63,953 bases of DNA from Bacteroidota bacterium. GTDB lineage: Bacteria; Bacteroidota; Bacteroidia; 2-12-FULL-35-15. The notes beneath the pieces are model-generated. The model searched no databases, was not told the origin of the DNA, and was given only the letters and a program-made list of their open reading frames with translations. The DNA lies in contig JANYDQ010000024.1 of the NCBI GenBank assembly GCA_025363555.1, positions 1 to 63,953 on the forward strand, given 5' to 3'. A program made the position numbers and the translations under genes. Below are positions 8,694-58,771 of this stretch, one piece after another. The first letter of the stretch is position 1; every line of letters starts with the position of its first letter.

Positions 8694-9350
8694 ATGTTAG
8701 ACAAAGTTGGAATTGCAAAACGCATTGCAAAAGAAATTAAGGATGGTTATTATGTGAACCTGGGAATTGGGATTCCAACACTGGTAGCTAATTATATTCC
8801 GAAAGGAATAAATGTAGTGCTTCAATCAGAAAATGGATTGCTTGGAATGGGCCCATTTCCTTTTGAAGGGGAAGAAGATTCGGATTTGATAAACGCTGGA
8901 AAACAAACTATAACTACTGTTCCCGGTTCTGCCTTTTTTGATTCGGCAATGAGTTTTGGAATGATTCGCTCGCGGAAAGTGGATTTAACTATTCTGGGCG
9001 CAATGGAAGTTGCCGATAATGGTGATATTGCCAATTGGAAAATTCCGGGAAAGATGGTGAAAGGTATGGGAGGTGCAATGGATTTAGTTGCTTCTGCAAA
9101 AAATATTATTGTGGCGATGCAACATGTGAACAAAGCAGGTGAATCGAAACTATTACCAAAATGCGAATTACCTTTAACCGGAGTTCGGTGCGTAAAAAAA
9201 ATTGTAACCGAATTAGCAGTACTTGATGTTACCCCAGAAGGATTCAAATTATTGGAACGTGCTCCGGGTGTGAGTGTGGAACAAATAAAAAATGCAACTG
9301 GGGGGAGATTGATAATAGAAGGGGATGTGCCGGAGATGGTGATTGATTGA
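8694..9350 (+). CDS. scoB: CoA transferase subunit B
   Basis: VNLGIGIPT, SENGLLG (catalytic Glu region), and MGGAMDLV. Confidence 0.85.
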   Translation: MLDKVGIAKRIAKEIKDGYYVNLGIGIPTLVANYIPKGINVVLQSENGLLGMGPFPFEGEEDSDLINAGKQTITTVPGSAFFDSAMSFGMIRSRKVDLTILGAMEVADNGDIANWKIPGKMVKGMGGAMDLVASAKNIIVAMQHVNKAGESKLLPKCELPLTGVRCVKKIVTELAVLDVTPEGFKLLERAPGVSVEQIKNATGGRLIIEGDVPEMVID

Positions 9351-9391
9351 ATTACTCATTGCTTGGTGGAACGCCTTCCGGTGAAAGGGTA

Positions 9392-11218: not shown

Positions 11219-11254
11219 TATAGTTCAATAATTCTTTTCAATTTATTTATTAAA

Positions 11255-13345
11255 ATGCAATTATCGTTTATTAATAATATTTGCAGTCGAACAGACAAGA
11301 ACAAAAGCCTGATTGTTCTGTTATTTTTTATTGTCTTTTTATTTGTCGGCTTATCAATTTATAAAGATTACGGCTTATCCTGGGACGAGGGTACACAGCG
11401 CTCATCAAACGGGTATGTTAATTACAATTTTATTAGATATTATGCCAAAGATCCACTTTTAAACGGATTAGACAAATATCACGGACCCGCCTTTGAACTT
11501 GTTCTTGTTATTGTTGAGAAAATTTTCCATCTTTCCGATACCCGTGAAATTTATTTTATGCGGCACCTCCTTACATTTCTTGTGTTCTTCATTTCCTCTC
11601 TGTTTTTTTATTTACTTGCTTTAAAATTATTTAAAAATTGGAAGCTTGCATTCATCGGGGTTTTGCTATATGTGCTAAGTCCCCATATTTTTTCTCATGC
11701 TTTTTATAATTCAAAAGATTCGATTCTGCTTTCGTTTTTTACCATCAGTATTTATTTACTGATTATGTTTCATGAACGGCAAACTTATTTTTTAGCATTT
11801 ATGTATTCATTTGTGGCTGCCTTCACCATTGATGTAAGAATAGTGGGGATTGTTTTACCTGCCATTTCTTTTCTGTTGCTATTAATTGAACTTGTAACTG
11901 CAATTTGCAATAAAAGAAAACCTGAAATTAATGGTAGTGTGCTGCTGTTTTTTTTATTGCTAATTGCTTTTATCATTTTATTTTGGCCTGTTTTGTGGTT
12001 AAATCCTGTTCATCATTTTCTGGAAGCATTAAAAGAAAACAGCAACTATTATTGGAATTACAAAATTCTTTACTTCGGAAAATATACGTCAGCGCATGAC
12101 TTACCCTGGCATTATTTAATTTTCTGGATTTTTGTTTCTACTCCTGTGATATACTCCGTTTTGTTTCTTACGGGCGCGATATTTTATTGCCAACTGTTTT
12201 TTGTGAAGCCATTTCAATTTGTAAAAGAAAAGAAAAACGAAATGGTAATTTTTATTTGGTTTTCTCTTCCATTAGCGGCAATTGTTTTATTCAAAAGTGT
12301 TGCTTTTGATACCGGACGGCACATGTATTTTATTCATGGAGCATTTATTTTAATTGCAGTTGGTGGCGTTCAAACATTTTATTCGTTGTTTAGAAAAAGA
12401 AAAACGTTTCTTTACTTTTTTAATATTGTCTTGATTTGTTCTTTTGCTGGTGTCATTTATAAAATGATTATAATTCATCCATACGAGCAGTTGTATTTTA
12501 ATGAAGCAATGGGTACTGACATGAATAAAATCAGTACTAACTTTGAAATGGATTACTGGGGCTTGGCTGCCAGGGAAGTTTTAGAAAACATTTTAGCAAA
12601 AGATTCATCATCCAAAATAACACTTTATTCAGAAAATTTTCCTGGAGAATTAAATGCTCAAATTTTATTACCTCTTCAAAGAAAAAGAATTGTTTATACA
12701 AACATTATTGAAAAAGCAAAATACTATATGGCGGATTACAGATGGATTAGAAAGGGGGGATACCCTTATAGTAAAGAGTATTATTCAGCCACTCTTGGTA
12801 ATGCATGTCTTTATACAGCGTTTGTTGTGCGACAAAAAGGAGAAGGATATTCAAAAACGCGAGGCAAAGAACTTATCACTTCGGTTGCTGATTTTGAGAA
12901 TAAGAAAGAGAACAACTGGACGTTCGATAGAATTACAAAACCAAATTCAGCGGCTCACTCGGGTATGTTTTCAACATTCGTGGATAGTGCAAATGAATAT
13001 AGCAATATGTATATATTGCCGACAACCGAAATACTGTTAAATAAAAAAAATGTTGTTCTAAAAACTTCTTTTTGGAAATATGAAACGAAGTCGGGTTCTG
13101 ATGCTAAATTTGTGGTTAGTATTGAATCCAAAAATGGAACATCTTATTTTTGGCAAACCATTAATGAAATATGTACAAAAGAAAAAACATCGGAGTTTGG
13201 ATGGGAAAAAATAACGGGCGAGGTTGATTTACCTGAAATACGATCAAATGGAGATATAATAAAAGTCTATTTGTGGAATGTTGGCAAAAAGCAAATTTTT
13301 ATGGATGATGTGGAAATTCATTTTGTTCAGGAAGCTTATAATTAG
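11255..13345 (+). CDS. GT39/ArnT-PMT_2-like membrane glycosyltransferase (group B) with C-terminal jelly-roll/CBM-like domain
   Basis: First-loop LSWDEGT, then YHGPAFE, and many TM spans. C-terminal AHSGMFSTFV ... KVYLWNVGKKQIFMDDVEIHF. Confidence 0.6.
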   Translation: MQLSFINNICSRTDKNKSLIVLLFFIVFLFVGLSIYKDYGLSWDEGTQRSSNGYVNYNFIRYYAKDPLLNGLDKYHGPAFELVLVIVEKIFHLSDTREIYFMRHLLTFLVFFISSLFFYLLALKLFKNWKLAFIGVLLYVLSPHIFSHAFYNSKDSILLSFFTISIYLLIMFHERQTYFLAFMYSFVAAFTIDVRIVGIVLPAISFLLLLIELVTAICNKRKPEINGSVLLFFLLLIAFIILFWPVLWLNPVHHFLEALKENSNYYWNYKILYFGKYTSAHDLPWHYLIFWIFVSTPVIYSVLFLTGAIFYCQLFFVKPFQFVKEKKNEMVIFIWFSLPLAAIVLFKSVAFDTGRHMYFIHGAFILIAVGGVQTFYSLFRKRKTFLYFFNIVLICSFAGVIYKMIIIHPYEQLYFNEAMGTDMNKISTNFEMDYWGLAAREVLENILAKDSSSKITLYSENFPGELNAQILLPLQRKRIVYTNIIEKAKYYMADYRWIRKGGYPYSKEYYSATLGNACLYTAFVVRQKGEGYSKTRGKELITSVADFENKKENNWTFDRITKPNSAAHSGMFSTFVDSANEYSNMYILPTTEILLNKKNVVLKTSFWKYETKSGSDAKFVVSIESKNGTSYFWQTINEICTKEKTSEFGWEKITGEVDLPEIRSNGDIIKVYLWNVGKKQIFMDDVEIHFVQEAYN

Positions 13346-13443
13346 AAAATGATTCATTGATTTTTCTGTTTTCTTCAAATCATTTTTCTATTTTTGACGA
13401 TAAACAATTATTTAACTGATTTAATCTTTATAAATATTACATA

Positions 13444-14163
13444 ATGTCAATATCCAAATTATCTATCATTATTCCTGCTTATAACGAAGCGGCTACTATT
13501 CATTTTATTTTAAATAAAGTAATTGCAGTTAAATTAATTAATGATATTGAAAAAGAAATTATTATTGTGAACGATTGCTCGAAAGACAAAACACAGGAAG
13601 TGATTGAAACATATATCAAAGAACACGGTGAGTTTAATATCCGGTTGTTTAACCAGGAATATAATCAAGGGAAAGGTGCTGCGCTGCACAAAGGAATTTC
13701 TCTGGCTACAGGAGAATATTTGATAATACAAGATGCCGATTTGGAATACGACCCGGAAGAATATAATATATTGTTAAAGCCAATAATTAATGATTTTGCA
13801 GATGTGGTGTATGGTTCCCGCTTTATGGGAGGAAAGCCACATCGTATTTTATTTTTCTGGCATACATTAGGAAATAAGTTTCTTACTAATCTTTCCAACA
13901 TGTTTACCAATCTGAACTTATCTGATATGGAAACATGTTATAAATTATTTAAAACCGAAATTATACAAAGCATCAAACTAAAAGAAAACCGTTTTGGTTT
14001 TGAACCCGAAGTAACTGCCAAAATTTCCCGTGTTCCTAAAATAAGAATTTACGAAGTTGGTATTTCTTATTATGGACGAACTTATGAAGAAGGAAAAAAG
14101 ATAGGATGGAAAGATGGTTTCAGAGCTATGTGGTGTATATTGAAATATAATCTTTTTTCATAA
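13444..14163 (+). CDS. family 2 glycosyltransferase, polyprenol-phosphate sugar synthase type (DPM1/GtrB/ArnC-like)
   Basis: [42 protein letters not shown] (DXD), and YGSRF.. in a 239-aa soluble protein. Confidence 0.75.
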
Positions 14164-14178
14164 CTATTTTTTCAACTT

Positions 14179-16176
14179 GTGAAAACCCTTAATAATATTG
14201 AAAAAGCATTTGGGTACATAAGTACTAATGTTTGGCTACTACTTTTTGTTATAGCCAATTTTCTTCTTAAAACCTTTCAAATTTCTTCCCAGAGTTTGTA
14301 CGGAGATGAGCCCTATAGTATATTCTGCGCTCAACAATCTATAAATGATTTAATCCCCGTTTTTTTAACAGACCAAAATCCACCTTTACATATTTCTTTA
14401 TTACATGTCTGGATGAATCATTTTGGAATTACAGATGTTTCAGCTAAAATGTTATCTGTTACCTGTAGTGTTTTAGCAAGTGGAATTTTGTTTTTGTTTG
14501 CAAATAAATTTATAGATAAAACAACTGCCATTTTTGTTTCTTTTCTTTTTTTGTTTTCTAATTCACAGCAATACTTTGCTACTGAAGTACGTCCTTATGC
14601 ATTAATTCAACTTTTGTGTATTTCCTCTTTTTATATTTATTATTTACTGCTTATTAATCCGAAATTAAAACACCTCTTCTTTTTATTTATTATAAATCTC
14701 CTGTTAATTTTCACTCACTATCTTACCATTTTTGCCTTTGTTGTTCAGTTTTTAGGTATATTATTTTATTTCAGAAAAAACAGGAAAACGGTTATTTATT
14801 ACTTTATCAGCCAGGTAATGGTGATACTCGTATTACTCCCCTGGCTAAAAATTGCTTTTTCAAATATTCCCAAAAATGGGGCGTTCTGGAATACAATACC
14901 GAACTATTTTGCCTTCAGATGGCATGTTAATATTTTATTAGGAAATGAAGTATTGTATTATGTATTTAACGGGATAGTAATTTGTTCTGTATGTTTATTT
15001 CTGTTGAACAAAAAAATTAATGTATTTAATAAAATTTTTAATTGGAGGTATTATTTAATTTTTCTTCTGCTGTATATTTTACCAATACTATTGAATTTTA
15101 TTGTTGCCCAATATTCGCCCGTATTTACAACCCGGTATTTTCTTTATTCATTATTCGGTTTGTTTTTATTTGTTGCGTATTCTTTTAGTAGCTTAAACAT
15201 TCATTCTGTATTTAAAACTATTTTATTTTTACCGTTCCTTTATCTCCTGTTTACGTCATTTCTTGTGGTCCAGGAACGGCAGGACGATTGGAAACATATA
15301 GTTCCGGACATAGTAAAACTTAAAAAGCCTAATACTTTAGTTTATATATCTGCATCTTATAAATATAAAGACTTTTCGTTTTATTATGACATTGATGCCT
15401 TTAAAGATTATCAGCATACTATTGACCGTCTTGCCAAAGAACATGTTTTTGTTACCCCAATCAATGAATCGAAAGGGTGGGAAAAATTAAATTTCAACTT
15501 AATTCAAAATGTTATTTATGTACAGGCACATAGCCAGTTTGAAGATTCGTTAAATCAAATAAAACCTTATATCGTAAATAAAGGATTTACCGAATGCAAT
15601 CATTTTCAAAAAGGCGGAATACAATATACTGTATTTATTCGCGATACTATGGAATGTTATTCGGCAAAAATAACATCAGAAAATACAAGTGTCGGTTGTG
15701 ATTTATTAGAGCATTATAGTGGCATACATGAAACGACTGATTCTGTTGAAATTTACAAAACCTCTTTTGAGTATCCCGAAAATTGCCCGGCTTACCAGGG
15801 AATAACTGACAAGATAAAATATACAGGAAACCATTCTTTCAGAATAAATGAAGCAAATCAATTTGAATTAGGATTAATAAAACCTAAACATGATTTATTG
15901 AAAAACAAAAAGAATATAAATGTAGCCGCCTATGTTAATGTGGAGGAGGGAAACGATGGTTGGTTAATTGTTTCGGTGGAGAAAGGGCCCCTTACTTTAT
16001 TCAGAAATAATATCTATCTGAAGGAAAGTATTAAAGTATATAATAAATGGCAGAAAATAACTTTGAGTTCTCTTATTCCTGATGATGTACCGGATGATGC
16101 CGTAGTAAAAATATATTTCTGGAACCCGGGGAAGAAAAATATTTTTGTTGATGATTTTTCAATCCAGGTTTTTTAA
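14179..16176 (+). CDS. GT39/ArnT-PMT_2-like membrane glycosyltransferase (group B) with C-terminal jelly-roll/CBM-like domain
   Basis: First-loop YGDEPYS and multi-span topology. The C-terminus KIYFWNPGKKNIFVDDFSIQVF matches 11255 and 9392. It uses a GTG start, with no in-frame ATG near the N-terminus. Confidence 0.6.
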   Translation: MKTLNNIEKAFGYISTNVWLLLFVIANFLLKTFQISSQSLYGDEPYSIFCAQQSINDLIPVFLTDQNPPLHISLLHVWMNHFGITDVSAKMLSVTCSVLASGILFLFANKFIDKTTAIFVSFLFLFSNSQQYFATEVRPYALIQLLCISSFYIYYLLLINPKLKHLFFLFIINLLLIFTHYLTIFAFVVQFLGILFYFRKNRKTVIYYFISQVMVILVLLPWLKIAFSNIPKNGAFWNTIPNYFAFRWHVNILLGNEVLYYVFNGIVICSVCLFLLNKKINVFNKIFNWRYYLIFLLLYILPILLNFIVAQYSPVFTTRYFLYSLFGLFLFVAYSFSSLNIHSVFKTILFLPFLYLLFTSFLVVQERQDDWKHIVPDIVKLKKPNTLVYISASYKYKDFSFYYDIDAFKDYQHTIDRLAKEHVFVTPINESKGWEKLNFNLIQNVIYVQAHSQFEDSLNQIKPYIVNKGFTECNHFQKGGIQYTVFIRDTMECYSAKITSENTSVGCDLLEHYSGIHETTDSVEIYKTSFEYPENCPAYQGITDKIKYTGNHSFRINEANQFELGLIKPKHDLLKNKKNINVAAYVNVEEGNDGWLIVSVEKGPLTLFRNNIYLKESIKVYNKWQKITLSSLIPDDVPDDAVVKIYFWNPGKKNIFVDDFSIQVF

Positions 16177-16212
16177 CTGTCAGGAAAAATAATTCGTTTT
16201 AATTATATAATT

Positions 16213-18021
16213 ATGAAAAAAATATTCTGGACATTATTAGGAACTCTTTTGCTTATTGGTGCAGCCCTTTATAATCAATTTCCGTTAGTAACTTCCGATA
16301 GTGGTACATATATTTTAAGCGGGTTTAAATTTTTTATTCCTGCCGACCGACCTATTGTTTATGGTTTATTTGTTCGCCATTCCAGCTTAGCTGTAAGTTT
16401 ATGGTTTACCATTATTTTTCAATCGCTTATTCTTTCTTATTTACTTTGGCTTACTTTAAATGAATTTGCAAATTCATATGTAGGAAGAACAGGAAAGTTT
16501 TTTATTATTACTTTTCTTGTTTTGTTTACAGGCATAAGCTGGTATTCGAGCCAAATAATGCCCGATGTTTTTACTTGTATTGGTATTCTTGCTTTCGCTT
16601 TACTTTTATTGTCCGAAAGCTCTTTAGGGAAAATAGTTCTTCTATCTGTATTTTTTGTGGGAGCCGCATTAATGCACAATTCTAATAGTGTTATCTTTTC
16701 TTTATTATTAATACTTGTATTGCCATTTGCTATTACTACCAAATTATTTCAAAACAAAATAATTAAAACGCGAAGATTTGTTTTGGTTTTAATTTTAATA
16801 ATTAGTGCATGGCTATTAGCCCCAACCATTAACTATTCTATAAAAGGAGAATTTAAAACTGCAGGCAATCCGCATGCTTTTTTAATGGCTAAATTTATAG
16901 AGAATGGCGCTGTTGACCATTATTTGAATGACGTTTGTGATAGCAGCTTAATAACTTCTATACCCGATTCGGGCTTATATTTAATTAGTCCGAAACATAG
17001 TGAAAAATTTATTGACGTGGAAGGGTTCAGCAAAGCCAATGGAGCGATTATACATCAATGGGATTATTTAGGAACAGAAAACCAACAATTTTATATTATT
17101 AAAGTGTCGAAAGGATATTATAAAATTATTTCTAAAAACAGTAACAAGTGCATAGAGGTTTCAGAAAAAGATACAACCAGTTTAGGCGCACCCCTCATTC
17201 AAAATGATTACAAAGGGAAAGACAATCAGTTATTCAGTTTTAGAAATATAGACAATAAAGATTGCTGGTTTATAGAAAATAAAAAAAGTAAAAAATTACT
17301 GGATATTTCAGGAATAAGCAATGATAACGGTGCAGCCGTTAATCAGTGGAATTTTACAGGAGCAGAAAATCAGCAATTCAGAATTGTAAGATACCCTTAT
17401 TGTTTATGTTTATATAAAGATAAGCTTCCTAATTCGGCTGTTGCCTTTTTATGGGAAAACAATGGTGTGTTTGCTAAAACAGGGGCATGGGCATGGAGTG
17501 AAAATGAATATAAAAAAGTGTTAAGCGACCTTATGTTTTCTCCTAAATATATAGGAATTACTATTGGTGATGCTCTTGTTTCAACTTTGCAACAGTTAAC
17601 ACAAATAGATATTGGAAGCGGGCTTGGAGGATATGACAAAAACAGTTCTCCATACGTAGCAATTGCCAATTGTTTAAAATATGAATTAAAACCTTTTAGC
17701 AATAGCAAGGAAAACAGGTGGGCATTGAATTTTACAGAAATAAATAACAGGAACTTCTGGATTATCGTTTTTTCAATGATTATTATTATTTGCTTCTTCA
17801 AAATTCCATTACTAAGAAAAAGCATCCTGCAACCATTTATAGTATTTATTTATATTTCTTTTTCGGCAATTGTTTGCAATGCATTTGTTACCGGGGCACT
17901 GGCAAATGTTTTAGACCGGTTACAATGTCGCGTGGTTTGGTTTATTCCTATGATTGCGTTGATTTTACTGTGTAATTATTTTATTCCTGTCATTAAAAAG
18001 CATAGATTTTTTAATGAATAA
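16213..18021 (+). CDS. polytopic membrane protein with an internal ricin-B-type beta-trefoil lectin domain
   Basis: TM-rich residues 1-215 and 510-600. The central soluble insert has three (QxW)-like subrepeats: NGAIIHQWDYLGTENQQFYIIKV, GAPLIQNDYKGKDNQLFSFRN and NGAAVNQWNFTGAENQQFRIVR, each preceded by KCIEV/LLDI-type strands. Confidence 0.6.
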   Translation: MKKIFWTLLGTLLLIGAALYNQFPLVTSDSGTYILSGFKFFIPADRPIVYGLFVRHSSLAVSLWFTIIFQSLILSYLLWLTLNEFANSYVGRTGKFFIITFLVLFTGISWYSSQIMPDVFTCIGILAFALLLLSESSLGKIVLLSVFFVGAALMHNSNSVIFSLLLILVLPFAITTKLFQNKIIKTRRFVLVLILIISAWLLAPTINYSIKGEFKTAGNPHAFLMAKFIENGAVDHYLNDVCDSSLITSIPDSGLYLISPKHSEKFIDVEGFSKANGAIIHQWDYLGTENQQFYIIKVSKGYYKIISKNSNKCIEVSEKDTTSLGAPLIQNDYKGKDNQLFSFRNIDNKDCWFIENKKSKKLLDISGISNDNGAAVNQWNFTGAENQQFRIVRYPYCLCLYKDKLPNSAVAFLWENNGVFAKTGAWAWSENEYKKVLSDLMFSPKYIGITIGDALVSTLQQLTQIDIGSGLGGYDKNSSPYVAIANCLKYELKPFSNSKENRWALNFTEINNRNFWIIVFSMIIIICFFKIPLLRKSILQPFIVFIYISFSAIVCNAFVTGALANVLDRLQCRVVWFIPMIALILLCNYFIPVIKKHRFFNE

Positions 18022-18066
18022 TTTTTTATCTGAAGTGAAAACAAAAACAAACTTTACCATTTTTGG

Positions 18067-19803
18067 ATGAACACTTTAAAAGCCATTTTTGAATTTTCTG
18101 TCAAGTATGTTTGCGAACTTGTTTTACTTATTTGCCTTGTTATCACTTTTTATCAGCAGATAAATAACGACAAGTGGAAACAAATTATCCGGTCGGATGG
18201 TTTGGGTTATTATGCTTATTTGCCGGCAGTTTTTATTTATCACGATTGTAAGTTTGAATTCTTAAAAGAGATAGATAAAAACTACAACATGAATCAGTAT
18301 TCCGGTGGGATGATAAAATCAACTCCCCTTGGCAAAGTAAATAAATTTTATGTTGGATTAAGTATTTTTTGGCTGCCATTCTTTTGGCTCGCTCATCTTT
18401 TTACTTTATTTTCGGGAGGGGTAACAGATGGTTATACTTATTACTATCAAATTTTTATTGCTATTGCAGCTAATTTTTATTTGTGGTTAGGGTGTAAATT
18501 TACAAGACGGTTAATTATAAAATATGCTGTTTCCGAAAAAATTTCTGCATTTATTATTTTATTAATTGTGTTTGGAACAAATCTTTCGCACTATGCAACT
18601 TACGATTCAAATGGAACACACGTTTATTCGTTTGCGGCTATTGCGGCTTTTTTACTTTCCAGTCATTCTTTTTTTGAACATCAAAAAAGTAAATATCTTT
18701 ATTGGTGTGCCTTTCTTATCGGGATAATATTTCTTTTGCGCCCATCTAATATATTAGTGATTATACTGTTTCCGTTTTTTACTACGTCATTATATACATT
18801 TATAACATGTATTAAATCACTGAAAAAAGAAATCGCAATTTGTTTTTTAATATTTTTGATTACTATTGTTCTTCAATTTATTTTTTATTTTTTACAAACC
18901 GGGCATTTTATAGTTTGGTCGTATGATGATGAAACATTTAATTTTAGTAAGCCTGAATTTTTAAATGTTCTTTTTAGCTACCGCAAAGGATTGTTTATAT
19001 ATGCTCCTTTAATTTTAGTATCGCTTTCCGGGCTTTATTTTTTATTCAAAAAAAATAAATTTCAATTTTCAGTGCTGTTATTCTTTCTTCTTATTAGCTG
19101 TTATATTATTTCCAGTTGGTGGTGCTGGAGTTACGGATGTTGTTTAGGGCAGCGTTCTTTTGTAGATTATTCAGCCATTTTTGCATTATTATTTTCGTTT
19201 TTGTTTTTGGGCATTTCAAAAAGCAATTATTTAAAAGCATTGTTGTTGGGTTCAGCTCCTCTTTTTATTTTTTATTCAATGATGCTTTCTTTTCAATTTG
19301 AACATAATATTATTAGCTGGGATGAAATGAACAAAGAAAAATTTTGGGCAGTTTTTATGAAAACAGGTGCAGAATATGAAGGGCTTACATCCTCCAAAGG
19401 ATTATTTTCTGGCAATGACGAATACCACCCGGTTTCTATTAAGGCGGCTAACAATTTATTTTTATGTGCAGATGAATTTGTTTCAGACCAATTTATTATG
19501 GTGAATAGAAACGCAAGCCAGGCATGGGAAACATTCAACCTTATAAATGCAGGTGATAATAAAGTTGCTTTTAAAACATATCGTGGAAATTATATTTCTG
19601 CACGATTGGATTCCGGAAGTGTGATTAAATATTCTGTGAATAAATTAAACAATTGGGAAACATTTGAAATGATTCCGTTCGGAGATAAAATAGCCCTCAA
19701 GGCATGTAATGGTAAATATGTATCTTTAAACGGAGACAGGCTTTTTGCCAATTCTGATTGTTTATCAGGTTCCAACTGCTTTTTTACATTGGGGGTAAAA
19801 TAA
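18067..19803 (+). CDS. polytopic membrane protein, GT-C-like (group A paralogue) with C-terminal fascin-like beta-trefoil domain
   Basis: SDGLGYYAYLPAVF, IVWSYDDETFNFSKPEFLNVLFSYRKGLFIYAP and SSWWCWSYGCCLGQRSF. C-terminal VSIKAANNLFLCADE..AWETFNLINAGDNKVAFKTYRGNYISA..NNWETFEMIPFGDKIALKACNGKYVSL. Confidence 0.6.
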   Translation: MNTLKAIFEFSVKYVCELVLLICLVITFYQQINNDKWKQIIRSDGLGYYAYLPAVFIYHDCKFEFLKEIDKNYNMNQYSGGMIKSTPLGKVNKFYVGLSIFWLPFFWLAHLFTLFSGGVTDGYTYYYQIFIAIAANFYLWLGCKFTRRLIIKYAVSEKISAFIILLIVFGTNLSHYATYDSNGTHVYSFAAIAAFLLSSHSFFEHQKSKYLYWCAFLIGIIFLLRPSNILVIILFPFFTTSLYTFITCIKSLKKEIAICFLIFLITIVLQFIFYFLQTGHFIVWSYDDETFNFSKPEFLNVLFSYRKGLFIYAPLILVSLSGLYFLFKKNKFQFSVLLFFLLISCYIISSWWCWSYGCCLGQRSFVDYSAIFALLFSFLFLGISKSNYLKALLLGSAPLFIFYSMMLSFQFEHNIISWDEMNKEKFWAVFMKTGAEYEGLTSSKGLFSGNDEYHPVSIKAANNLFLCADEFVSDQFIMVNRNASQAWETFNLINAGDNKVAFKTYRGNYISARLDSGSVIKYSVNKLNNWETFEMIPFGDKIALKACNGKYVSLNGDRLFANSDCLSGSNCFFTLGVK

Positions 19804-19859
19804 TAAAGTAACTTATATAAAAAAAAAAGCTGTTTTTGTTATTGACAGTAGATTAAACA

Positions 19860-21440
19860 ATGAATAAAATAATTAATAAATCAGAATTCCTTTTTTTTAT
19901 TTTAGTAGTACTGTTAAATCTTTCTCCCGTTTTATCTACTAACTATTTTTGTACCCTTGATGGTGGCTCACACGCCAACAATGCACATATTATAAAAACC
20001 CTGTTAACTTCTTCTCACAGTATTTATTCTGATGTATATAAAATAAATCCCGAATTAGTTCCAAACTGGTCGGGGCATTTCGTATTGGCATTTCTAAGTT
20101 TATTCTTTGCCAATTATGTGTCAGAAAAAATCTTGGTCTGTTCCATTTTAATACTTATCCCGTTTTTTTTCAGAAAAATTGTAAAACTCATCGCTCCCGA
20201 TAATGCAGTGATGTGTTACCTTATTTTTCCCTTTACCCATTATGTGCTGTTATATTTAGGGTTCTTTAATTTTACCATCGGCATTTTATTCTTTTTTATT
20301 ACTGTTTATTTTTATTTAAAACATTCTCTTAATTTTAAATGGCAACACTATATTATTCTCTTCCTTTTATCAGGAGCACTTTACTTTTCCCATCTTTTTG
20401 CTTTTGTCGTTACTATATTTTATTTAGCATTACATTCATTTTTTGTTGCCTTGTTCGATTCTGAAAATACGTTTTGGTATCGTTTGCGAAAAAAAACACT
20501 TCCGGTACTTTTGTGCTCGCTTCCATTTCTGTTACTTACTATAAACTATTTTGCCAACCGACCACCAAAACCTCCCAGCCAGGTTTCCTTTTTACCTGCC
20601 GAAAGAATATGGGTAATGATTAGAGACGGTTATGTTTTTTCGATAGATAATATAGCAGAAAGACCTTTCGCCAGATTGTTTTTCTTTGTACTCATCGTTT
20701 TATTTTTTGTTGTACTTATTAAAGGCATTATTTTCTTTTTCAACAACCCGGACAAAAAGAAGATGGTATGTTTATTTTTTAAAAAACCAGTTTCCTCTTT
20801 CCTGGTACTTGTTATCTTTTTGTTGTCTATGACGTTTGTTTTTCCCGATGGTGACGGGTACGGAGGATTTATAACTTTGCGTTTTATTTATTTTGCAGTT
20901 CTGTTTATGTTATTATTTTCATTGGAGTTAAGTTATTCAGGAAAAAATTTCAATATCCTATTACTGTTTATTGTCGGTTTTTCGTATTTTAATTTAACAG
21001 ATTTTCGTACCAATCAAATTATGTGGACCAATAATGAGCGGCATCAGCTCGAAAAGGCATTTGAGAAAATTCACACTAATTCTTCTTTGTTAACTTTCCG
21101 GCTGCAAAAAAATGACAACTGGTTTTTAGGCCACTTTATGGAATATGCCGGAGCGGATAAAGACATTCTGATATTGAATAATTACGAAGCAGCCGAAAAA
21201 TATTTTCCTGTTATTTATTTGGAAAATAAAACAGCAAAATATACAGCGGGAGAATTCAATCTTTTCATGGGGCAAACATTACAGGGAACTAATGATACCA
21301 TTAAAAAAAAGATAGATTATGTTTTAATATATGGTTTAAAAAATGAAGATACCGAATATACCCAAATGGTGAAAAGTATAGGAAATGAATATAACCTTGT
21401 TTACGATTCGCCACGGGTAAATTTATTTAAGAAACAATAA
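19860..21440 (+). CDS. polytopic membrane protein (possible GT-C-like), unknown function
   Basis: 526 aa with about 10 hydrophobic spans and a soluble C-terminal roughly 150 aa. Co-oriented with the preceding membrane glycosyltransferase-like genes. No recognisable catalytic motif. Confidence 0.45.
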   Translation: MNKIINKSEFLFFILVVLLNLSPVLSTNYFCTLDGGSHANNAHIIKTLLTSSHSIYSDVYKINPELVPNWSGHFVLAFLSLFFANYVSEKILVCSILILIPFFFRKIVKLIAPDNAVMCYLIFPFTHYVLLYLGFFNFTIGILFFFITVYFYLKHSLNFKWQHYIILFLLSGALYFSHLFAFVVTIFYLALHSFFVALFDSENTFWYRLRKKTLPVLLCSLPFLLLTINYFANRPPKPPSQVSFLPAERIWVMIRDGYVFSIDNIAERPFARLFFFVLIVLFFVVLIKGIIFFFNNPDKKKMVCLFFKKPVSSFLVLVIFLLSMTFVFPDGDGYGGFITLRFIYFAVLFMLLFSLELSYSGKNFNILLLFIVGFSYFNLTDFRTNQIMWTNNERHQLEKAFEKIHTNSSLLTFRLQKNDNWFLGHFMEYAGADKDILILNNYEAAEKYFPVIYLENKTAKYTAGEFNLFMGQTLQGTNDTIKKKIDYVLIYGLKNEDTEYTQMVKSIGNEYNLVYDSPRVNLFKKQ

Positions 21441-21697: not shown

Positions 21698-21705
21698 TAC
21701 ATTTG
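21698..21705 (+). promoter_or_regulatory. Bacteroidota -7 box candidate (TAnnTTTG) for the XRE gene
   Basis: TACATTTG lies 30 bp upstream of the ATG at 21736. A second match, TACTTTTG, is at 21681-21688. Small inverted repeats (AGCGATT..AATCGCT, TTTGTAA..TTACAAA) lie nearby. Confidence 0.3.
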
Positions 21706-21735: not shown

Positions 21736-21996
21736 ATGACAGGAGTGAATGTACGAGGGAAATTAATTCGTAAACGGAGAGAAGAAAAAGGGTTATCACT
21801 TTTAGACGTGGCAATAAAAATAGGAAAGTCGGAATCTTATATGAGCAGAATTGAAAACGGAAAAATTAATTTGACAGAGCAATATGAACTAATGATTGTT
21901 ATTATTTTGTGGGACTATTTGGAACATTATCAAAATGAATACGCAACACTTTTCAGGAAAGAGGGCTTGGATAAAAAATTTTTGTACCTGAAATAA
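21736..21996 (+). CDS. XRE-family helix-turn-helix transcriptional regulator
   Basis: GKLIRKRREEKGLSLLDVAIKIGKSESYMSRIENGKINLT is a canonical HTH_3 pattern. The last 7 codons already belong to the 21-bp array. Confidence 0.7.
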   Translation: MTGVNVRGKLIRKRREEKGLSLLDVAIKIGKSESYMSRIENGKINLTEQYELMIVIILWDYLEHYQNEYATLFRKEGLDKKFLYLK

Positions 21997-22353
21997 AAAT
22001 AGTTTTTTAAACTTAAAAAACAATTTTGAAGCAAGAATAAATGATTTTTGAAAGCTGGAAAATCATTTTGTAGCAAAAAGAAATCATTTTTTAAACTTAA
22101 AAAATAATTTTGTAGTAAGAATAAATGATTTTTGAAAGCTGAAAAATCATTTTGTAACAATAATAAATTATTTTTTAAACTTAAAAAACAATTTTGTAGT
22201 AAGAATAAATGATTTTTGAAATGTAGAAAATCATTTTGTAGTAATAATAAATCATTTTTTAACCTTAAAAAACAATTTTGCAAGAAGTAAAAATAGTTTT
22301 TTAAAAGTAAAAAATGATGTTGTAACAATAAAAAATGAATTTTAAACGTAATA
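21976..22353 (+). repeat. tandem array of 18 units of exactly 21 bp, organised as four 84-bp super-repeats
   Basis: Every unit begins AAA(T/C)NATTTT. Examples: aaatcattttttaaacttaaa / aaacaattttgtagtaagaat / aaatgatttttgaaagctgaa / aaatcattttgtaacaataat. Super-repeats at 21997, 22081 and 22165 are roughly 90% identical, and the one at 22249 is more diverged. The array ends 36 bp before the ATG at 22389. Confidence 0.9.
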
Positions 22354-22388
22354 ATAAATTAATATAAACTAAATAACACTAAAATAAA

Positions 22389-23081
22389 ATGGCAGATTTA
22401 ACCTTTGTAGAACCAACAGACCCAAAATTCAGCTTGCAAATATTGAAATTTGCAAACCGATTACCTACTTATTCGGCAATAGTAGGAGTAACCACAGCCG
22501 AAAAAAACAGCGCACTGGCAGATGCCGTATTTTTTGAATACGTTGTAAGCTGGATGGGTGTAAACCGTGCTTTTTCGGTTAGTTCCACTTCTTATAAAGA
22601 CCTTGCCAGGGTTCAAATTGGTGCAGAAGTGCTTCCTGCGGTGCCGCCCACCCCGGTGGCAGATACTCCTCCGGCATTGGTGGAGGCAGGAATTCAAAAG
22701 AGGTTTACTGATTTGGCAGAGCGGATTAAAAAATCTCCGAATTATACTTTTACAATAGGTGAAGCATTAGGAATTGCAAAATCGGTTGCGCCTTTTGTTC
22801 CCGGAGACGGCAAACCAATATTGAAATTGACATTGGTAGAAGGAGGTTTTCCGCAAATTGGATATAAAAAAGGAAAATATCAAAGTTTGATGATTCAGAA
22901 AGAAGACAAAGATGGGGTAATGAATTTATTAACTATTTCTGTTCCTGCAAAATATGTGGACAAAGCAGATATGCCGCTTCAGGGAGTTACTAAAAAAGTG
23001 AAATACAAGGCTATCTATATGTATAAAGGGGCACCGGTGGGCGAATGGAGCGATGTTTTTACAATTACTGTTACGGGGTAA
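22389..23081 (+). CDS. hypothetical protein, Fn3-tail family paralogue 2
   Basis: 230 aa with no signal peptide. It has an N-terminal helical region, the P/T-rich linker AVPPTPVADTPPALVE, and a C-terminal beta-sandwich ending KYKAIYMYKGAPVGEWSDVFTITVTG (Fn3-like Y.Y....G.WS motif). Confidence 0.6.
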   Translation: MADLTFVEPTDPKFSLQILKFANRLPTYSAIVGVTTAEKNSALADAVFFEYVVSWMGVNRAFSVSSTSYKDLARVQIGAEVLPAVPPTPVADTPPALVEAGIQKRFTDLAERIKKSPNYTFTIGEALGIAKSVAPFVPGDGKPILKLTLVEGGFPQIGYKKGKYQSLMIQKEDKDGVMNLLTISVPAKYVDKADMPLQGVTKKVKYKAIYMYKGAPVGEWSDVFTITVTG

Positions 23082-23105: not shown

Positions 23106-23139
23106 AAAAAAGTTCTGTGTAAATGCAGAACTTTTTTTT
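23106..23139. terminator. bidirectional rho-independent terminator between convergent genes
   Basis: AAAAAAGTTCTG (23106-23117) pairs with CAGAACTTTTTT (23126-23137). A-run on one side, T-run on the other. Confidence 0.7.
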
Positions 23140-23149
23140 ATTTATAGAC

Positions 23150-24922
23150 TTATTTTACCGCTTTCAAAACAGTTGCTGTTAAATTTAACAGCTTCATTTT
23201 TTTATCTCCATCAATATACACATACGACAGGATTTCATAGTTTTTATTATTTGCCTGTGGCGGAATTAAAACGGATAAATCTATTGGGGCTTTTGTGTTT
23301 TTAATGTCCGAATAATTAAAATCGCGGGAACGGTATTTATATAATTTTCCATCTTTATTAATAACAGTAACTAAATGGGCAGTTATGTCAGATGATGTGT
23401 TTGCGGTATTGGTATCTGCCATTACGGAGGTTATTAAATAATTATCCTGCACATCGTATCCCAAATTTGCGGTCACTGTTATTGATTTAGAAAAAGCAGT
23501 ACCGGCATTTAACAGAGCCGAACTTTCGTTTAGTGATAAATTGCTGCTATATACTTTGTCATATTTTAATGAAAGATTCAGTGCATCTTTGCCATCTGCA
23601 TATTGAGCAGGTTCCAGCCATCTTTTGTCTTCCTCGGTTGCTTCGCCTTTTAAAAATACTCTCCAGTAATATTCTTTAGTGGTAAGAGTGGTATGTAATA
23701 TCCCGTTTTCCGCCTGGTGGGTTTGAAATAAATTAAGATGAATAATAACCAAACTCAATACTAATGCAGTAATTACAACAAGTTGTTTTTTTAACGAAAG
23801 GTAATGAATGAATGCTGCTAACGGAAAAGCCATAAACACATAGCTTTCTACAAAAGGTCGCTGTGCAAACGAACCACCATACCACCAGCAATCCCAGCAG
23901 GAAACAAGATAAGTGTTTACTATGAAGAATATAAAAACGGGGAGAAACAATTCGCGATGTTTTTTAAACAAACTAACAAAACCCCAGATAGCAAAGCACA
24001 TTAAGGGTGTGTACAGCAGCCATCCTTTTTTGTAACTAAATAAAACATTAAGTAAATGTGGTTTTGATAATTGTATTTTTTCGCCCGGATAACTATAAAA
24101 CAACCATTGCCCGGAAACCGATTTCCAATAAATAAGTTGAGGAAGAATAACCAGGAAAGCAACACCGCCAATAACAAAGAGATGATAAAATTTATGTATG
24201 AAAAGTTTTATTCTTGCCCTCATAGAATCTAAACTCCACACCTTCCATAACAATGGAATAATAACTACTACAGCACTTGTAGGGCGAATAAGTACTGATA
24301 TGCCAATACAAAAACCAATGGTTATAGCGTATTTTAATTTTTGAACTTCATACCATTTAATGGTGTTATAAAGCATGATGGCAAAAAATGTAAAAATAAA
24401 ATTATGAGGCATCAATCCGTCATAAGCTGTCATTACAAAATAATTGCTTCCAAACACCAGCAAAGCAATGGTAGCAAAAACAATGGTTTCGCTGAAATAA
24501 AGAGAAAGAATTTTAAATAAATAATAAATACCAAGCAAGGAAAAAAACAAAGCACAGAGCATCATCATCCATTGGTAAGGAGGCGAAAACCCATCTCTGT
24601 CGAAATGAAAGAGCATTGCCATAAAATCGGCAACAAAAAAGAAAGGGGCATATACAAAGGATAAACCCATGGTATATTTCATAACCAATTTATCTTTCGG
24701 TCCTTTGTATGCCTGGTAAAATCCTTCGGTGGTATGATATTTTTCTATAATAGGATTTAACCACACTTCTTTTTTTTCTAAATGTATATCATCATAAATA
24801 AACTGGGCAGGCAGATAGAGATAATAACCAAACACATCCCAATCGAGCCGGGTATGGCGTTTTGAACTATTGAAAACAAAAACGCATAAAAAAAATAAAA
24901 TGAAAATGGATTTCCGTGTCAT
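23150..24922 (-). CDS. polytopic membrane protein, GT-C-like (group A paralogue) with divergent C-terminal beta-rich domain
   Basis: WDVFGYYLYLPAQF, LFYSYPGEKIQLSKPHLLNVLFSYKKGWLLYTP and SCWDCWWYGGSFAQRPF. The C-terminal roughly 170 aa are soluble. Confidence 0.6.
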   Translation of the reverse strand: MTRKSIFILFFLCVFVFNSSKRHTRLDWDVFGYYLYLPAQFIYDDIHLEKKEVWLNPIIEKYHTTEGFYQAYKGPKDKLVMKYTMGLSFVYAPFFFVADFMAMLFHFDRDGFSPPYQWMMMLCALFFSLLGIYYLFKILSLYFSETIVFATIALLVFGSNYFVMTAYDGLMPHNFIFTFFAIMLYNTIKWYEVQKLKYAITIGFCIGISVLIRPTSAVVVIIPLLWKVWSLDSMRARIKLFIHKFYHLFVIGGVAFLVILPQLIYWKSVSGQWLFYSYPGEKIQLSKPHLLNVLFSYKKGWLLYTPLMCFAIWGFVSLFKKHRELFLPVFIFFIVNTYLVSCWDCWWYGGSFAQRPFVESYVFMAFPLAAFIHYLSLKKQLVVITALVLSLVIIHLNLFQTHQAENGILHTTLTTKEYYWRVFLKGEATEEDKRWLEPAQYADGKDALNLSLKYDKVYSSNLSLNESSALLNAGTAFSKSITVTANLGYDVQDNYLITSVMADTNTANTSSDITAHLVTVINKDGKLYKYRSRDFNYSDIKNTKAPIDLSVLIPPQANNKNYEILSYVYIDGDKKMKLLNLTATVLKAVK

Positions 24923-24925
24923 GGT

Positions 24926-26083
24926 TTAATTATTAACTGCGTTTTCTTTTTTCAGCAAATCATACATTTGTTCAATAAAATTATACCCGCAATTAACTAA
25001 ACTCGATTCGTTATAAACAAGCACTATAAAGTCCCGGTTAAGCGTTTGCTCTTTTAAATTTAATTTAGACACCGGGTATTTATCCATACCATTAATTTGG
25101 GGCCAGCCTACTTCTTTGTTATAATACCAGTAAGCAGATTTATCACTCACCAAATTAGGGATATAACTGTCCGTGCCTATCCAGCTCCATACAAAACTAT
25201 CGCCAACCAAAAGAACATTGGGTTTTGTTTTTTGCGTATCTTTTTTAATTATCAAGTTGGGATAATACATCGGGAAAGAAGGAATATCGCGGACCAGGTT
25301 CATTGCCTGCCCTATGTCAGCATCTGTTCTTTCAGGTTGAGTAGTTTCCCTTCCTCCTGCATAATAATAATTCGGCATATCAATATGGCGCATATTTTCC
25401 ATATATTTTATTAATGTATCAGCCGCCAAAGTAGAACCATATATACTCCAATGAATTCCGCATCGCGTAAACAGTGCGTGTTTGGCAGTTGGTTTCAGTT
25501 TTAAAAGAAATTTCCTGAAATCAATATAATTTATTTTTTGTTTTTCAAATTGTTCGGTGTATGCATCATAATTACTCCTTGTTTTTTTTGAAATGTCGTA
25601 TTTGTCGGGCAGAAATTCAGAATAAAAAGCCGACTTACCCGGGGTGATTAAGAACAATAAATCAATGTTCCGCTTCTTTAATTCCGATTGAACATAATAG
25701 AGTTTGTTTACTTTATCAATTACTGCATCTTCTCCAACAAAATCTTTTCCAATAAATCCCTTTGTATATCCTGCACCAAATAAAAAGTGGTTTTTTCCTT
25801 CCTCTACATCTTTTACATTGATGGTATCGAACACAGAATACCCTATTTGATTGTGAAGGCGGGTCAAAAAGGTATGAGTATCCATGTTTTGCTCATAATA
25901 TTTCATCACTGTATCCTGGTAGTTTCCACTCAACCAGTTTTCAAGAGTAAAAGTTGGTTTTGGCATATTAACAATCCCGCCTTGCAGCGGAGTGGCGTTA
26001 AGCCACTGAAAACGGTTTTGAAGAAGTTCCCCGCAAACAGCCAGGAAAAACAAAACAAATAAGCTATGTTTAATTACTTTCAT
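24926..26083 (-). CDS. AlgX/AlgJ-like SGNH-fold protein (putative glycan O-acetyl-transferase/esterase)
   Basis: N-terminal anchor; an HW motif in CGIHWSIYG (DHHW-family-like); LLVGDSF (GDS block). Immediately upstream of, and co-oriented with, 23150-24922. Confidence 0.4.
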   Translation of the reverse strand: MKVIKHSLFVLFFLAVCGELLQNRFQWLNATPLQGGIVNMPKPTFTLENWLSGNYQDTVMKYYEQNMDTHTFLTRLHNQIGYSVFDTINVKDVEEGKNHFLFGAGYTKGFIGKDFVGEDAVIDKVNKLYYVQSELKKRNIDLLFLITPGKSAFYSEFLPDKYDISKKTRSNYDAYTEQFEKQKINYIDFRKFLLKLKPTAKHALFTRCGIHWSIYGSTLAADTLIKYMENMRHIDMPNYYYAGGRETTQPERTDADIGQAMNLVRDIPSFPMYYPNLIIKKDTQKTKPNVLLVGDSFVWSWIGTDSYIPNLVSDKSAYWYYNKEVGWPQINGMDKYPVSKLNLKEQTLNRDFIVLVYNESSLVNCGYNFIEQMYDLLKKENAVNN

Positions 26084-53669: not shown

Positions 53670-54557
53670 TTAGGCATTAATAACAGTTCTTAACTGTTTT
53701 TCATTTAATAACCTGTTCACTCTTTTTTCTGCAATTTGTTTTTTTGTTTCCAGCCATTTGTCCCCGGCCATTTTAATGAGCAATTTATCAAATGGAATTA
53801 TCATAAAGTTAAAAAGCCCTTCCAGTTGTGTTTTAAAGGTAGTTGCAATTTTGCGATAGCTAACCGAAAAACCCCCTTCCAGGTAAGTCATATAATGCCA
53901 GTAGCCGCTTGGCATAAAAATGCTGTCGCCCGGTTCAAGGATGATGTCGTACCCTTTTACATAACGTAAGCCGGGATACTTTTCATAATCGGGATTATCC
54001 ACATTAATCAGTGAATACGTGTTTAACGGCAAACAATACAGCAAATCCCTGTATTCAGGAGCAAAAAGAACCACCCGTTTTTTGCCACCAAACTGGGTAA
54101 GCAGCACATTGGACATATCCACATCATAATGTATTCTCACCTTGGTATCTTTTCCTCCGAAAAACATGTGAGCGGTTTTGTCCAAAATACCTTTAAACAG
54201 TTCCGGGCATGGATATTCTTCTCGAAGACCGGGATTGAATTTAAAAAGGTTGAACAAAAAAATACGAAAATGGGTGTATTCGTTTTTAGCAATAATGTTT
54301 AGAAATTCCGAAAAGTTCATTTTTAAATCAGCCGAAGTAAATGCTGAAGCCGAACCTTTAGGGTTGCGATTGTCGAATACATCCACTTTCACATTTCCCA
54401 TTTTTTCCTTAAAGTAATCAAGCGACCATTTTTGAGCCGAAATAGTGTTTTCGGTAAGTCCTTTTATAACCACAGGTGTTTGAGTTTTCAAATATTTCCT
54501 GTTAAATTCTTCTGTGCTGATGTTGCGCACAACATCTGCCTTTAATGATAAATCCAT
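53670..54557 (-). CDS. cupin-like / JmjC domain protein
   Basis: PVVIKG...W, FFGGKDTKVRIHYD (His-x-Asp), VLFAP, and FMPSGYWHYM (second His). Confidence 0.65.
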   Translation of the reverse strand: MDLSLKADVVRNISTEEFNRKYLKTQTPVVIKGLTENTISAQKWSLDYFKEKMGNVKVDVFDNRNPKGSASAFTSADLKMNFSEFLNIIAKNEYTHFRIFLFNLFKFNPGLREEYPCPELFKGILDKTAHMFFGGKDTKVRIHYDVDMSNVLLTQFGGKKRVVLFAPEYRDLLYCLPLNTYSLINVDNPDYEKYPGLRYVKGYDIILEPGDSIFMPSGYWHYMTYLEGGFSVSYRKIATTFKTQLEGLFNFMIIPFDKLLIKMAGDKWLETKKQIAEKRVNRLLNEKQLRTVINA

Positions 54558-54891: not shown

Positions 54892-54959
54892 TTGCTATTA
54901 ATATACTATGGACTTACCACTTTTTAAGCTAATTTCGCAAAAAAATAAGTAGAGATACC

Positions 54960-58748: not shown

Positions 58749-58771
58749 TCCCCCGAAAATGAAAAAGCAAA

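Follow-up and report, generated by a model that had tools for sequence, protein, structure and literature searches.

Plasmid iterons of the F, R6K, pSC101 and P1 type are tandem direct repeats of about 17 to 22 bp, spaced by about 21 to 22 bp on one face of the helix, and they lie directly 5′ of the Rep gene, which encodes the protein that binds them. Related iterons soon differ in sequence but remain alike in spacing and arrangement. The centromeres of type II and III partition systems (parC of R1 and pSK41, and tubC) consist of 4 to 10 short tandem repeats 5′ of the operon that carries the gene for ParR or TubR, the small DNA-binding protein, which coats the array as a filament and autoregulates. 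In phased A-tracts and curved DNA upstream of promoters, the phase with the helix matters rather than a specific sequence. Here we describe tandem arrays of 21-bp units in a Bacteroidota contig (JANYDQ010000024.1). The window, that is, the whole stretch of DNA that was analyzed, is 63,953 nt long, and three of its genes are each preceded by such an array. These genes, at 1528, 22389 and 61657, are referred to as copies 1, 2 and 3; they encode small proteins with a C-terminal fibronectin type III (Fn3) domain. The statement with the best support is that the arrays act in cis at the level of DNA, in a way that requires helical phase, and are linked to how the downstream gene is expressed.

21-bp arrays precede three Fn3-type genes

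Arrays were detected with Tandem Repeats Finder (TRF) and by the self-match of the sequence at a given lag, expressed relative to shuffles (z). The arrays, the open reading frames (ORFs) that follow them and the small genes upstream are as follows.

645 to 905, + strand: ORF of 86 amino acids (aa), no recognizable domain, AACTAAA in its leader
1216 to 1488, no strand assigned: array 1, about 13 degenerate 21-bp units, core AAAAnATrGCC/ATGG
1528 to 2181, + strand: copy 1, with an in-frame TAG at 2077-2079; the ORF 1528-2079 encodes 183 aa
21736 to 21996, + strand: XRE-family helix-turn-helix (HTH) gene, 86 aa, immediately 5′ of array 2
21981 to 22358, no strand assigned: array 2, about 18 21-bp units in perfect register, with 42/84-bp higher-order repeats
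22389 to 23081, + strand: copy 2, 230 aa, with a helical N-terminal part, a P/T-rich linker and a C-terminal Fn3 sandwich
54730 to 54905 (approximate), no strand assigned: fourth array, ATTAGCTCCTYATATAAATRT, about 7 to 8 21-bp units, called by TRF, lag-21 z of 12.2
61332 to 61497, no strand assigned: array 3, about 6 to 8 21-bp units, ATCTTTAATTGCAGATACCAC
61657 to 62424, + strand: copy 3, 255 aa, with a helical N-terminal part and a C-terminal Fn3 domain

An initial annotation of the window had placed a 21-bp array ahead of each of the three genes, and this was borne out (lag-21 z of 5.8, 9.0 and 9.2 for arrays 1, 2 and 3, with TRF calls for the latter two). The three ORFs also stood as annotated (1528-2079, 22389-23081 and 61657-62424). 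Array 1 is the most degenerate of the three. Its lag-21 self-match is 0.46, compared to 0.30 ± 0.028 in shuffles, with harmonics at 42 and 63; the stretch at 1211-1483 was too degenerate to be detected by TRF. The core of this array is also found in the array of a homologue at another locus (L008; loci outside the window carry L numbers). Array 2 has the core AAAAT(G/C)ATTTT, and its start overlaps the final codons of the HTH gene. TRF called it at 21992-22351 with periods of 21, 42 and 84, the match at lag 42 was 0.71, and stop codons are present in each of the three + frames. Array 3 was called at 61355-61458 with a period of 21. When arrays 1 to 3 were stacked in rows of 21, the register was perfect, with zero indels.

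The fourth array had been overlooked in the initial annotation. On one side it is flanked by a divergent gene (53670-54557, − strand) and on the other by a gene for an EngB-type GTPase (54960-55565), and its downstream gene is not of the Fn3 type, which shows that arrays of this type are not strictly confined to the three Fn3 families. A 21-nt repeat with an array-like period was also seen inside an ORF, at 4881-5060; it encodes the heptapeptide TP-K/R-PNTG, within the P/N/T-rich C-terminal tail of a PSP1-like protein (3681-5120).

Arrays recur upstream of homologues at other loci

A word-indexed search returned only 18, 5 and 12 clusters for the three proteins. An exhaustive profile search with the copy-2 family retrieved 2429 representative clusters at an E value of ≤1e-3, 1354 at ≤1e-10 and 293 at ≤1e-30. 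Nearly all of these are 225 to 235 aa long, and every named one is "hypothetical." On these sequence matches the copy-2 family is large, with at least 1354 clusters, and unnamed. In agreement with the initial annotation, which could not place the family in any named group, sequence searches with copy 2 gave zero matches in Pfam, NCBIfam, PHROG, PADLOC and PDB.

Arrays were present upstream of homologues of all three proteins, and their sequence differed from locus to locus. Copy-2 homologues were preceded by arrays of GTGGTAGAAAATGATTTCAGA (L001), TTAGTGGAGGTGGAAAATGAT (L005) and CATCTGTTAACGTTAACGCGT (L006), and copy-1 homologues by arrays of AAACATAGCAACG... (L008) and AAGAGGGCTCTTTCTGGAGAA (L106) and by 13 units in L109. 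For copy-3 homologues, the arrays consisted of AATGCGACTGCTTTAATAATA (L010) and AAACAGTTGTTTCTTTGAAAA (L013), with a degenerate ACAGTTG array in L111. Among 11 loci from GTDB genomes, all of them Bacteroidota metagenome-assembled genomes (MAGs), an array was found in 8 of the 8 that had upstream sequence. A second set comprised 80 metagenome loci from another branch of the family (29 to 55% identity to the scan query, P0037), 72 of which had at least 170 nt of upstream sequence; 164 windows from the same loci served as controls. Strong arrays, defined by a self-match of at least 60% over 84 nt, with a best lag of 21, 42 or 63 were detected in 44 of the 72 upstream regions and in 0 of the 164 controls. 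The best lag fell on one of these three values in 58 of the 72 upstream regions, compared to 17 of the 164 controls. In the first 248 kb examined, before the metagenome scan, such arrays occurred only 5′ of these genes, at one other intergenic site in the window and as one coding repeat.

Contigs very often begin, or have N gaps, inside the arrays, which shows that the arrays break metagenome assemblies. The family genes have a GC content of 36 to 71%, and their leaders are partly of the Shine-Dalgarno type and partly A/C-rich without such a sequence; this GC range and the mixed leader types indicate that several phyla are involved. All-against-all clustering of the flanking ORFs yielded no conserved partner gene. 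A full-text literature search returned no account of such arrays, and Pfam, NCBIfam and Rfam hold no entry for the array-plus-gene module.

A phage or defense origin was rejected. Relatives on viral contigs were not found, PADLOC gave nothing for the three proteins, and PHROGs gave only a weak match to a minor tail protein, in the Fn3 region of the copy-1 homologue P0020. Beyond the Fn3 domain and this weak match, no phage or structural family was found that would explain the genes. The core idea of the initial annotation, a dedicated regulatory mechanism for the gene-plus-array organization, proved to apply much more widely than the window alone could reveal, given the arrays that precede homologues of all three proteins elsewhere. 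As far as sequence comparison can tell, a dedicated mechanism acting in cis is strongly supported.

The period is fixed while the unit sequence turns over

We compared 47 strong arrays upstream of family members, and the best lag was 21, 42 or 63 in 44 of them. The 21-bp period held at 30 to 72% GC and at protein identities down to about 25%, and the register was kept without indels even in degenerate arrays. Because a coding origin was excluded (see below), we read the period as two helical turns of 10.5 bp. The best circular match between unit consensuses was 18/21 for loci with at least 95% protein identity and 15/21 at 80 to 95%. Between L001 and L017, whose HTH proteins and products differ at few residues by eye, the 11-bp core was kept and the 10-bp linker was swapped. 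Cores could also be recognized at the family level: TCAT in copy-2 arrays, CAGTTG in copy-3 arrays and AAAACATAGC in copy-1 arrays. A core common to all arrays was rejected, as TCAT was present in 12 and GTCA in 9 of the 47, only a modest enrichment. Dyad symmetry beat 95% of shuffles in 10 of the 47 unit consensuses, where 2.4 were expected; examples are AAAAT-S-ATTTT, TAAGGAATTCCTTA, CCACAGGCCTGTGG and CGACCCGTACGGGTCG. CRISPR arrays were ruled out, since the entire 21-bp unit repeats, including the linker, and there are no unique spacers.

Hypermutable simple repeats were observed next to some arrays. A microsatellite, (ACTAT)n, 5′ of a copy-3 homologue (L010 1128-1190 and L011 1-82) differs in length between two samples. 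Poly-C tracts of 9 to >50 C lie upstream of the arrays of all three copy-2 paralogues in a Chitinophaga MAG (L020 at ~5560, L023 at ~5570 and L025 at 1-85).

The three proteins share an architecture

The initial annotation had described the three genes as paralogues. This description did not survive comparison: pairwise BLASTP among copies 1 to 3 gave nonsignificant E values of 0.09 to 29, and hhalign between the three family alignments gave a probability of <1%. With a 164-sequence copy-2 profile the hhalign probability against the others was still <1%, though the alignments were colinear, and a hidden Markov model of the same 164 sequences gave scores of about 0 bits for copies 1 and 3 as well as for their homologues. 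Homology between the three is not detectable, and what they share is architecture only, namely, a helical N-terminal part followed by a C-terminal Fn3 domain.

Structure prediction confirmed the Fn3 sandwich in copies 2 and 3. The AlphaFold2 model of copy 2 (predicted local distance difference test [pLDDT] score of 84.5) consists of two long helices, the P/T-rich linker, two short helices and a seven-strand sandwich, with strands at residues 145 to 229; the top Foldseek matches were Fn3 domains and covered the sandwich region only. The model of copy 3 was weaker (pLDDT of 60). Its C-terminal sandwich had 66 PDB matches at an E value of ≤1e-3 by structure comparison, and all 50 listed were Fn3/Ig-like sandwiches. 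The window proteins themselves are below the Pfam threshold for Fn3, and the domain was assigned to copy 1 through its homologue P0020, which has PF00041. The Fn3-type tail of the initial annotation was thus recovered in all three proteins; the closing motif that it had reported for copy 1 sits past the in-frame TAG. A hydrophobic N terminus, a signal peptide and a transmembrane segment were not found in any of the three, as annotated for the latter two features. Export as cargo of the type IX secretion system was ruled out on the missing hydrophobic N terminus and on the absence of a match to PF18962 (Por_Secre_tail).

In copy 1, the codon that follows ...KPYNF is TAG (2077-2079), and Gln occupies this position in four of four homologues. 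The 33 codons past the TAG encode the missing Fn3 G strand, VRSVGSAGTSEWS..., and reading through gives a product of 217 aa with the G strand at its end. The TAG is probably a real nonsense mutation, or copy 1 a pseudogene, since the truncated 183-aa product is recorded from 3 contigs. Given this interruption and the most degenerate array, copy 1 may be in decay. In copy 3, codons 1 to about 30 (61657-61755) are lysine-rich and poorly conserved, and Met34 is nearly invariant among homologues. Because of this poor conservation, the true start may be at Met codon 34, at about 61756.

The HTH gene is confined to one clade

The initial annotation had proposed a three-part module, with a small HTH-type ORF upstream of the array in two of the copies. 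The product of 21736-21996 is such a protein, with matches to PF01381 (E value of 1.2e-7, 32.1 bits, cut-off 23) and PF13560 (E value of 1.6e-7, 32.0 bits, cut-off 27) and weak matches to controller-protein models; a TAnnTTTG box at 21698-21705 lies ahead of the gene. None of Pfam, NCBIfam, PHROGs and PADLOC gave a match, HTH or otherwise, for ORF 645-905, which is probably a genuine gene but only a candidate member of the module.

The HTH gene adjoins the array in six related loci, and orthologues in the same position were present only in L001-L003 and L016-L019. As a universal partner of the arrays the XRE gene was rejected, being absent from 80 other family loci, most of which do carry arrays. 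From this distribution the HTH gene is a lineage-specific addition, confined to the close clade of copy 2. Because only the Fn3-type gene travels with the array, the module is better described as having two parts, array and gene, and the three-part version was abandoned.

Leaders and transcription signals

Around the window genes, and in the locus with the longest array, we located the following elements.

963 to 994, + strand: Bacteroidetes-type promoter of full consensus, TTTG-N20-TACTTTTG, 5′ of array 1
22359 to 22388, + strand: leader of copy 2, A-rich and G-poor, containing AACTAAATAAC at 22367-22377
23106 to 23137, + strand: intrinsic-terminator-like hairpin with a T run, past copy 2
61152 to 61182, + strand: Bacteroidetes-type promoter of full consensus, TTTG-N19-TACATTTG, 5′ of array 3, just past the glnA terminator
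1938 to 2421 of L045: 23 nearly identical units, the longest array seen

The pattern TTTG-N19/20-TAnnTTTG has six matches in the 64 kb, two of them being the promoters that precede arrays 1 and 3. Across 30 low-GC loci, the TAnnTTTG box was absent from the 4.2 kb between array and ATG, compared to 8 occurrences in 8 kb upstream. The distance from array to ATG ranges from 16 to 374 nt, and several arrays stop 16 to 45 nt from the ATG. In L045 a terminator abuts the array start, and the promoter must therefore lie within or after the array. The arrays thus lie across or next to the region of promoter and leader. A series of Bacteroidetes-type promoters within array 2 was considered and rejected, because the TTTG and TAnnTTTG-like motifs are not suitably spaced. 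Scans for sigma-70 promoters were uninformative save for an artefact-like TGGACA-17-GACAAT in every L045 unit; this pair spans one unit and the next, with one 8-mer doubling as both hexamers at the 21-bp period.

The 11-mer AACTAAATAAC occurs exactly twice in the window, at the positions given in the initial annotation (1508-1518 and 22367-22377; 0.14 expected), 10 to 20 nt ahead of the ATG in copies 1 and 2. The conclusion drawn there, that the leader was duplicated together with the gene, did not hold. The AACTAAA core of the 11-mer is present twice just ahead of the glnA ATG (58864 and 58871; ATG at 58882), in the leader of ORF 645-905 and three times in tandem ahead of a copy-3 homologue (L013). 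Because of this recurrence, we prefer to regard AACTAAA as an A-rich, G-poor motif that is general to leaders in the source organism. The leader of glnA, which encodes a type III glutamine synthetase, also has a long inverted repeat at ~58767-58856, followed by the tandem AACTAAA before the ATG (58767-58880); no Rfam match was found for the inverted repeat. An 8-bp tandem repeat, TAGTTCAT, is present in 4.5 copies at 61076-61111, between the glnA stop codon and the terminator.

Proposed phased binding sites and alternative explanations

We favor, with a probability of about 0.4, the explanation that the arrays are phased protein-binding sites on one face of the helix. It is favored because the units consist of core and linker, dyads are enriched, short cores are shared within families and, in the copy-2 clade, an XRE gene adjoins the array. 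The array would be a cis-acting DNA element of 5 to 23 head-to-tail units, and with 21 bp making exactly two helix turns, every unit would show the same face. Lying over or just 5′ of the promoter/leader of a gene for a small cytoplasmic helical-plus-Fn3 protein, it would be coated cooperatively along that face, in the manner of plasmid iterons or partition centromeres, and such coating would give switch-like control of the downstream gene. The control would most likely be repression, because many arrays end 16 to 60 nt from the ATG. In the copy-2 clade of the window, the XRE repressor predicted to be encoded immediately upstream would be the first candidate for the binding protein. Outside this clade, no protein other than the product is inherited along with the array, and autoregulation would be the alternative. 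The strict period, the fast turnover, the link to the gene family and the missing coding and strand-specific RNA signals belong to what was observed; we infer from them the binding of a protein, its identity and the direction of regulation.

Several results weigh against binding sites of this kind. Below 80% protein identity, the match between units drops to about 10/21, which is background, and a sequence-specific binder must therefore co-evolve very fast. In a single Chitinophaga MAG, three similar paralogues (about 80% identity by eye) have between them two unit types, AAGAATCATTCTT... and GACGGGTCATCCGTC.... A universal dyad was rejected, as significance was reached in no more than about a fifth of the arrays. 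A profile built from five HTH proteins and scanned against the loci matched in the window, L001-L003 and L016-L019 and in 0 of the 80 metagenome loci; regulator and operator, that is, XRE gene and array, do not co-occur across the family. Moreover, L020 and L023, which have no HTH gene, share an AATCATT core with the HTH-bearing loci. The copy-2 product has a neutral pI, and no DNA-binding fold was recognizable in its model, the Foldseek matches being confined to the Fn3 domain. Finally, the promoters ahead of arrays 1 and 3 would place these arrays inside the transcript.

The main rival to phased binding sites, which we consider unlikely, is an architecture of the DNA that is independent of sequence. 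In-phase 21-bp units would sum small bends into a coherent curve or loop, providing curved or wrappable promoter DNA, for example for the wrapping of RNA polymerase, for a nucleoid protein or for the sensing of temperature or supercoiling, and selection would act solely on the period and on the likeness of the units to one another. Of all the explanations, this one accounts best for a fixed period with a free sequence, given that the period persists where unit similarity is at background, and it accommodates the two unit types within one genome and the fourth array ahead of an unrelated gene. The Bolshoy wedge model predicts curvature, with end-to-end/contour ratios of 0.2 to 0.95 for real and permuted periodic arrays and a twist per unit of 699 to 737 degrees, about two full turns. 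However, real units are no more bent than position-permuted ones (median percentile of 0.30; 7% below the 5th percentile), and selection for intrinsic curvature was rejected for lack of a clear excess. Architecture alone also leaves unexplained the tie to one protein architecture, the enriched dyads and the persisting family cores. A related reading, doubtful at present, is that of a new class of cis element in which, again, only the 21-bp period and unit homogeneity are selected, and which is coupled across phyla to helical-plus-Fn3 cytoplasmic proteins; in this case, the Fn3 proteins might read the array or assemble on it.

Three further explanations concern the transcript, the repeats as such and a coding function. 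A transcribed 5′ untranslated region of 21-nt repeats could bind many copies of a protein, possibly the product, or control mRNA stability or translation. This is improbable, even though arrays 1 and 3 have full-consensus promoters on their 5′ side, no terminator was found between the HTH ORF and array 2, the TAnnTTTG box is missing between array and ATG in the low-GC loci, and several arrays stop close to the ATG. A stem-GTCAT-stem unit in three sequence-unrelated arrays (L026, L060 and L025) and a median folding z of −2.4 also speak for RNA. Yet the more stable fold belongs to the + strand in 23 arrays and to the − strand in 29, and stem mismatches show no excess of G-U over A-C, either overall (G-T 141 versus A-C 178) or in the ten best dyads. 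Strand-specific RNA structure is thus unsupported, and the symmetry between strands fits sites in duplex DNA, not RNA. Hardly any stable RNA structure would be expected from AT-rich arrays like array 2, the L045 terminator puts the promoter within or after the array, nothing at the arrays matched Rfam 15 at the gathering threshold, and a strict 21-nt period is left unexplained. A contingency locus or neutral satellite, whose recombination-prone repeats would tune or switch expression by copy number or merely hitch-hike with an inherited period, is very improbable. The contig breaks and N gaps, the 42/63/84-bp higher-order repeats typical of unequal crossing-over, the difference of about one unit between the diverged pair L093 and L097, and the poly-C tracts and the (ACTAT)n microsatellite that adjoin some arrays would all agree with it. 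Against it, arrays are identical across samples in five locus sets (L010/11/12, L028/29/30, L053/63, L067/68 and L093/94), and they are not obviously hypervariable in copy number, with the reservation that assemblies collapse population variation. Neutral inheritance would let the unit length drift, yet the best lag is a multiple of 21 in 44 of 47 arrays, across phyla, and the maintenance of arrays down to 25% protein identity requires selection. Microproteins of heptad repeats (7 aa being 21 nt), encoded on either strand, are hardly credible, and we rejected them. ORFs do run through some arrays (21930-22328, − strand; 61153-61557, + strand; L010 1081-1485), and several unit differences in L010 fall on third positions of a NATALII frame. 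However, the open frame switches strand or vanishes (only − in array 2, only + in L020 and L023, none in L016, L018 and L019), variability by codon position is flat in most arrays, without 3-periodicity, the two 134-aa ORFs show no relationship beyond the repeat, and the L010 ORF also crosses the (ACTAT)n tract of sample-dependent length.

Genomic setting of copy 2

Copy 2 is flanked on both sides by genes for membrane proteins.

9347 to 21440 and 23150 to 26083: series of large multi-pass membrane proteins; two have hits to PMT_2, and one is also Alg9-like

The neighbors also include a GT2 protein, a ricin-lectin-domain protein, a DUF7910/fascin-like protein and an AlgX-like SGNH protein. On these annotations the surroundings form an unusually dense glycosylation island, and both the P/T-rich linker of copy 2 and its GT-C setting stood as first annotated. 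The neighborhood recurs in related MAGs (L001 and L016-L019); like the HTH gene, the GT-C neighborhood is a feature of the copy-2 clade. Elsewhere in the window, Rfam 15 matched a group II intron fragment, namely, the 5′ end of an intron (RF01999) at 63885-63953, cut off by the window end, and a DUF805b RNA motif at 346-378 on the − strand.

Implications

A family of well over 1000 sequence clusters has neither a name nor a Pfam model, and no function is known for it; the conspicuous array signature upstream of its genes is not captured by current annotation and breaks metagenome assemblies. The array is a strong genomic marker for finding family genes and for flagging assembly gaps. If spacing is indeed fixed across phyla and sequence free, the arrays would offer an uncommon case, open to experiment, in which the geometry of the DNA is conserved rather than its sequence. 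If a protein reads the arrays, each copy would supply a protein-operator pair that is orthogonal by nature and has very many sites, of interest for bistable switches and synthetic biology. If the Fn3 proteins read their own arrays, each gene copy would have a private, fast-evolving "address," allowing orthogonal, switch-like control of many copies.

Comparison with known systems

XRE/Cro-C1 repressors and the controller (C) proteins of restriction-modification systems offer one parallel: 21736-21996 encodes a typical small XRE protein, and the core AAAAT-S-ATTTT is a dyad of the type that such dimers bind. However, known XRE operators comprise two or three sites, whereas 5 to 23 units in strict 21-bp register are present here, and the array core is also found in loci without the HTH gene. 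As in curved DNA, function here would rest on in-phase repetition rather than on a specific sequence; unlike A-tract DNA, many of the arrays are GC-rich and have no A-tracts, and the wedge model predicts no stronger bending for array units than for permuted ones. Sponge RNAs of the CsrB/RsmZ type, with their multiple hairpins, and multi-site RNA leaders resemble the arrays in that short repeats recur many times at even spacing; some of the array repeats could fold into small hairpins that share a GTCAT loop. They differ in that the arrays lack a strand-specific structural signal and a match in Rfam, and the loop motif occurs in a minority of them.

With the partition centromeres, the arrays have in common a tandem-repeat array 5′ of a gene for a small protein. 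Here, however, a motor gene of the ParM/TubZ type and a conserved neighbor were not found, and the only recognizable DNA-binding protein, the XRE protein, is confined to one clade. Compared with iterons, the loci described here are chromosomal and lie in varied, nonmobile contexts. The flanks of the window copies are housekeeping genes (holB-like, glnA and GT-C genes), plasmid or phage neighbors were not seen, and no member of the family was found on viral contigs, in a search that did not extend to plasmid collections. An AT-rich unwinding region, DnaA boxes and replication genes were not seen. The protein consists of a helical part and an Fn3 domain, judged from its model and from the lack of matches in Pfam, NCBIfam and PDB, and is not a winged-helix Rep protein. 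In layout the arrays come closest to iterons and partition centromeres. Because the nature of the protein, its genomic setting and the absence of partner genes are at odds with both, we do not file the arrays under either; what they share with iterons is the layout of helically phased tandem repeats directly 5′ of a gene.

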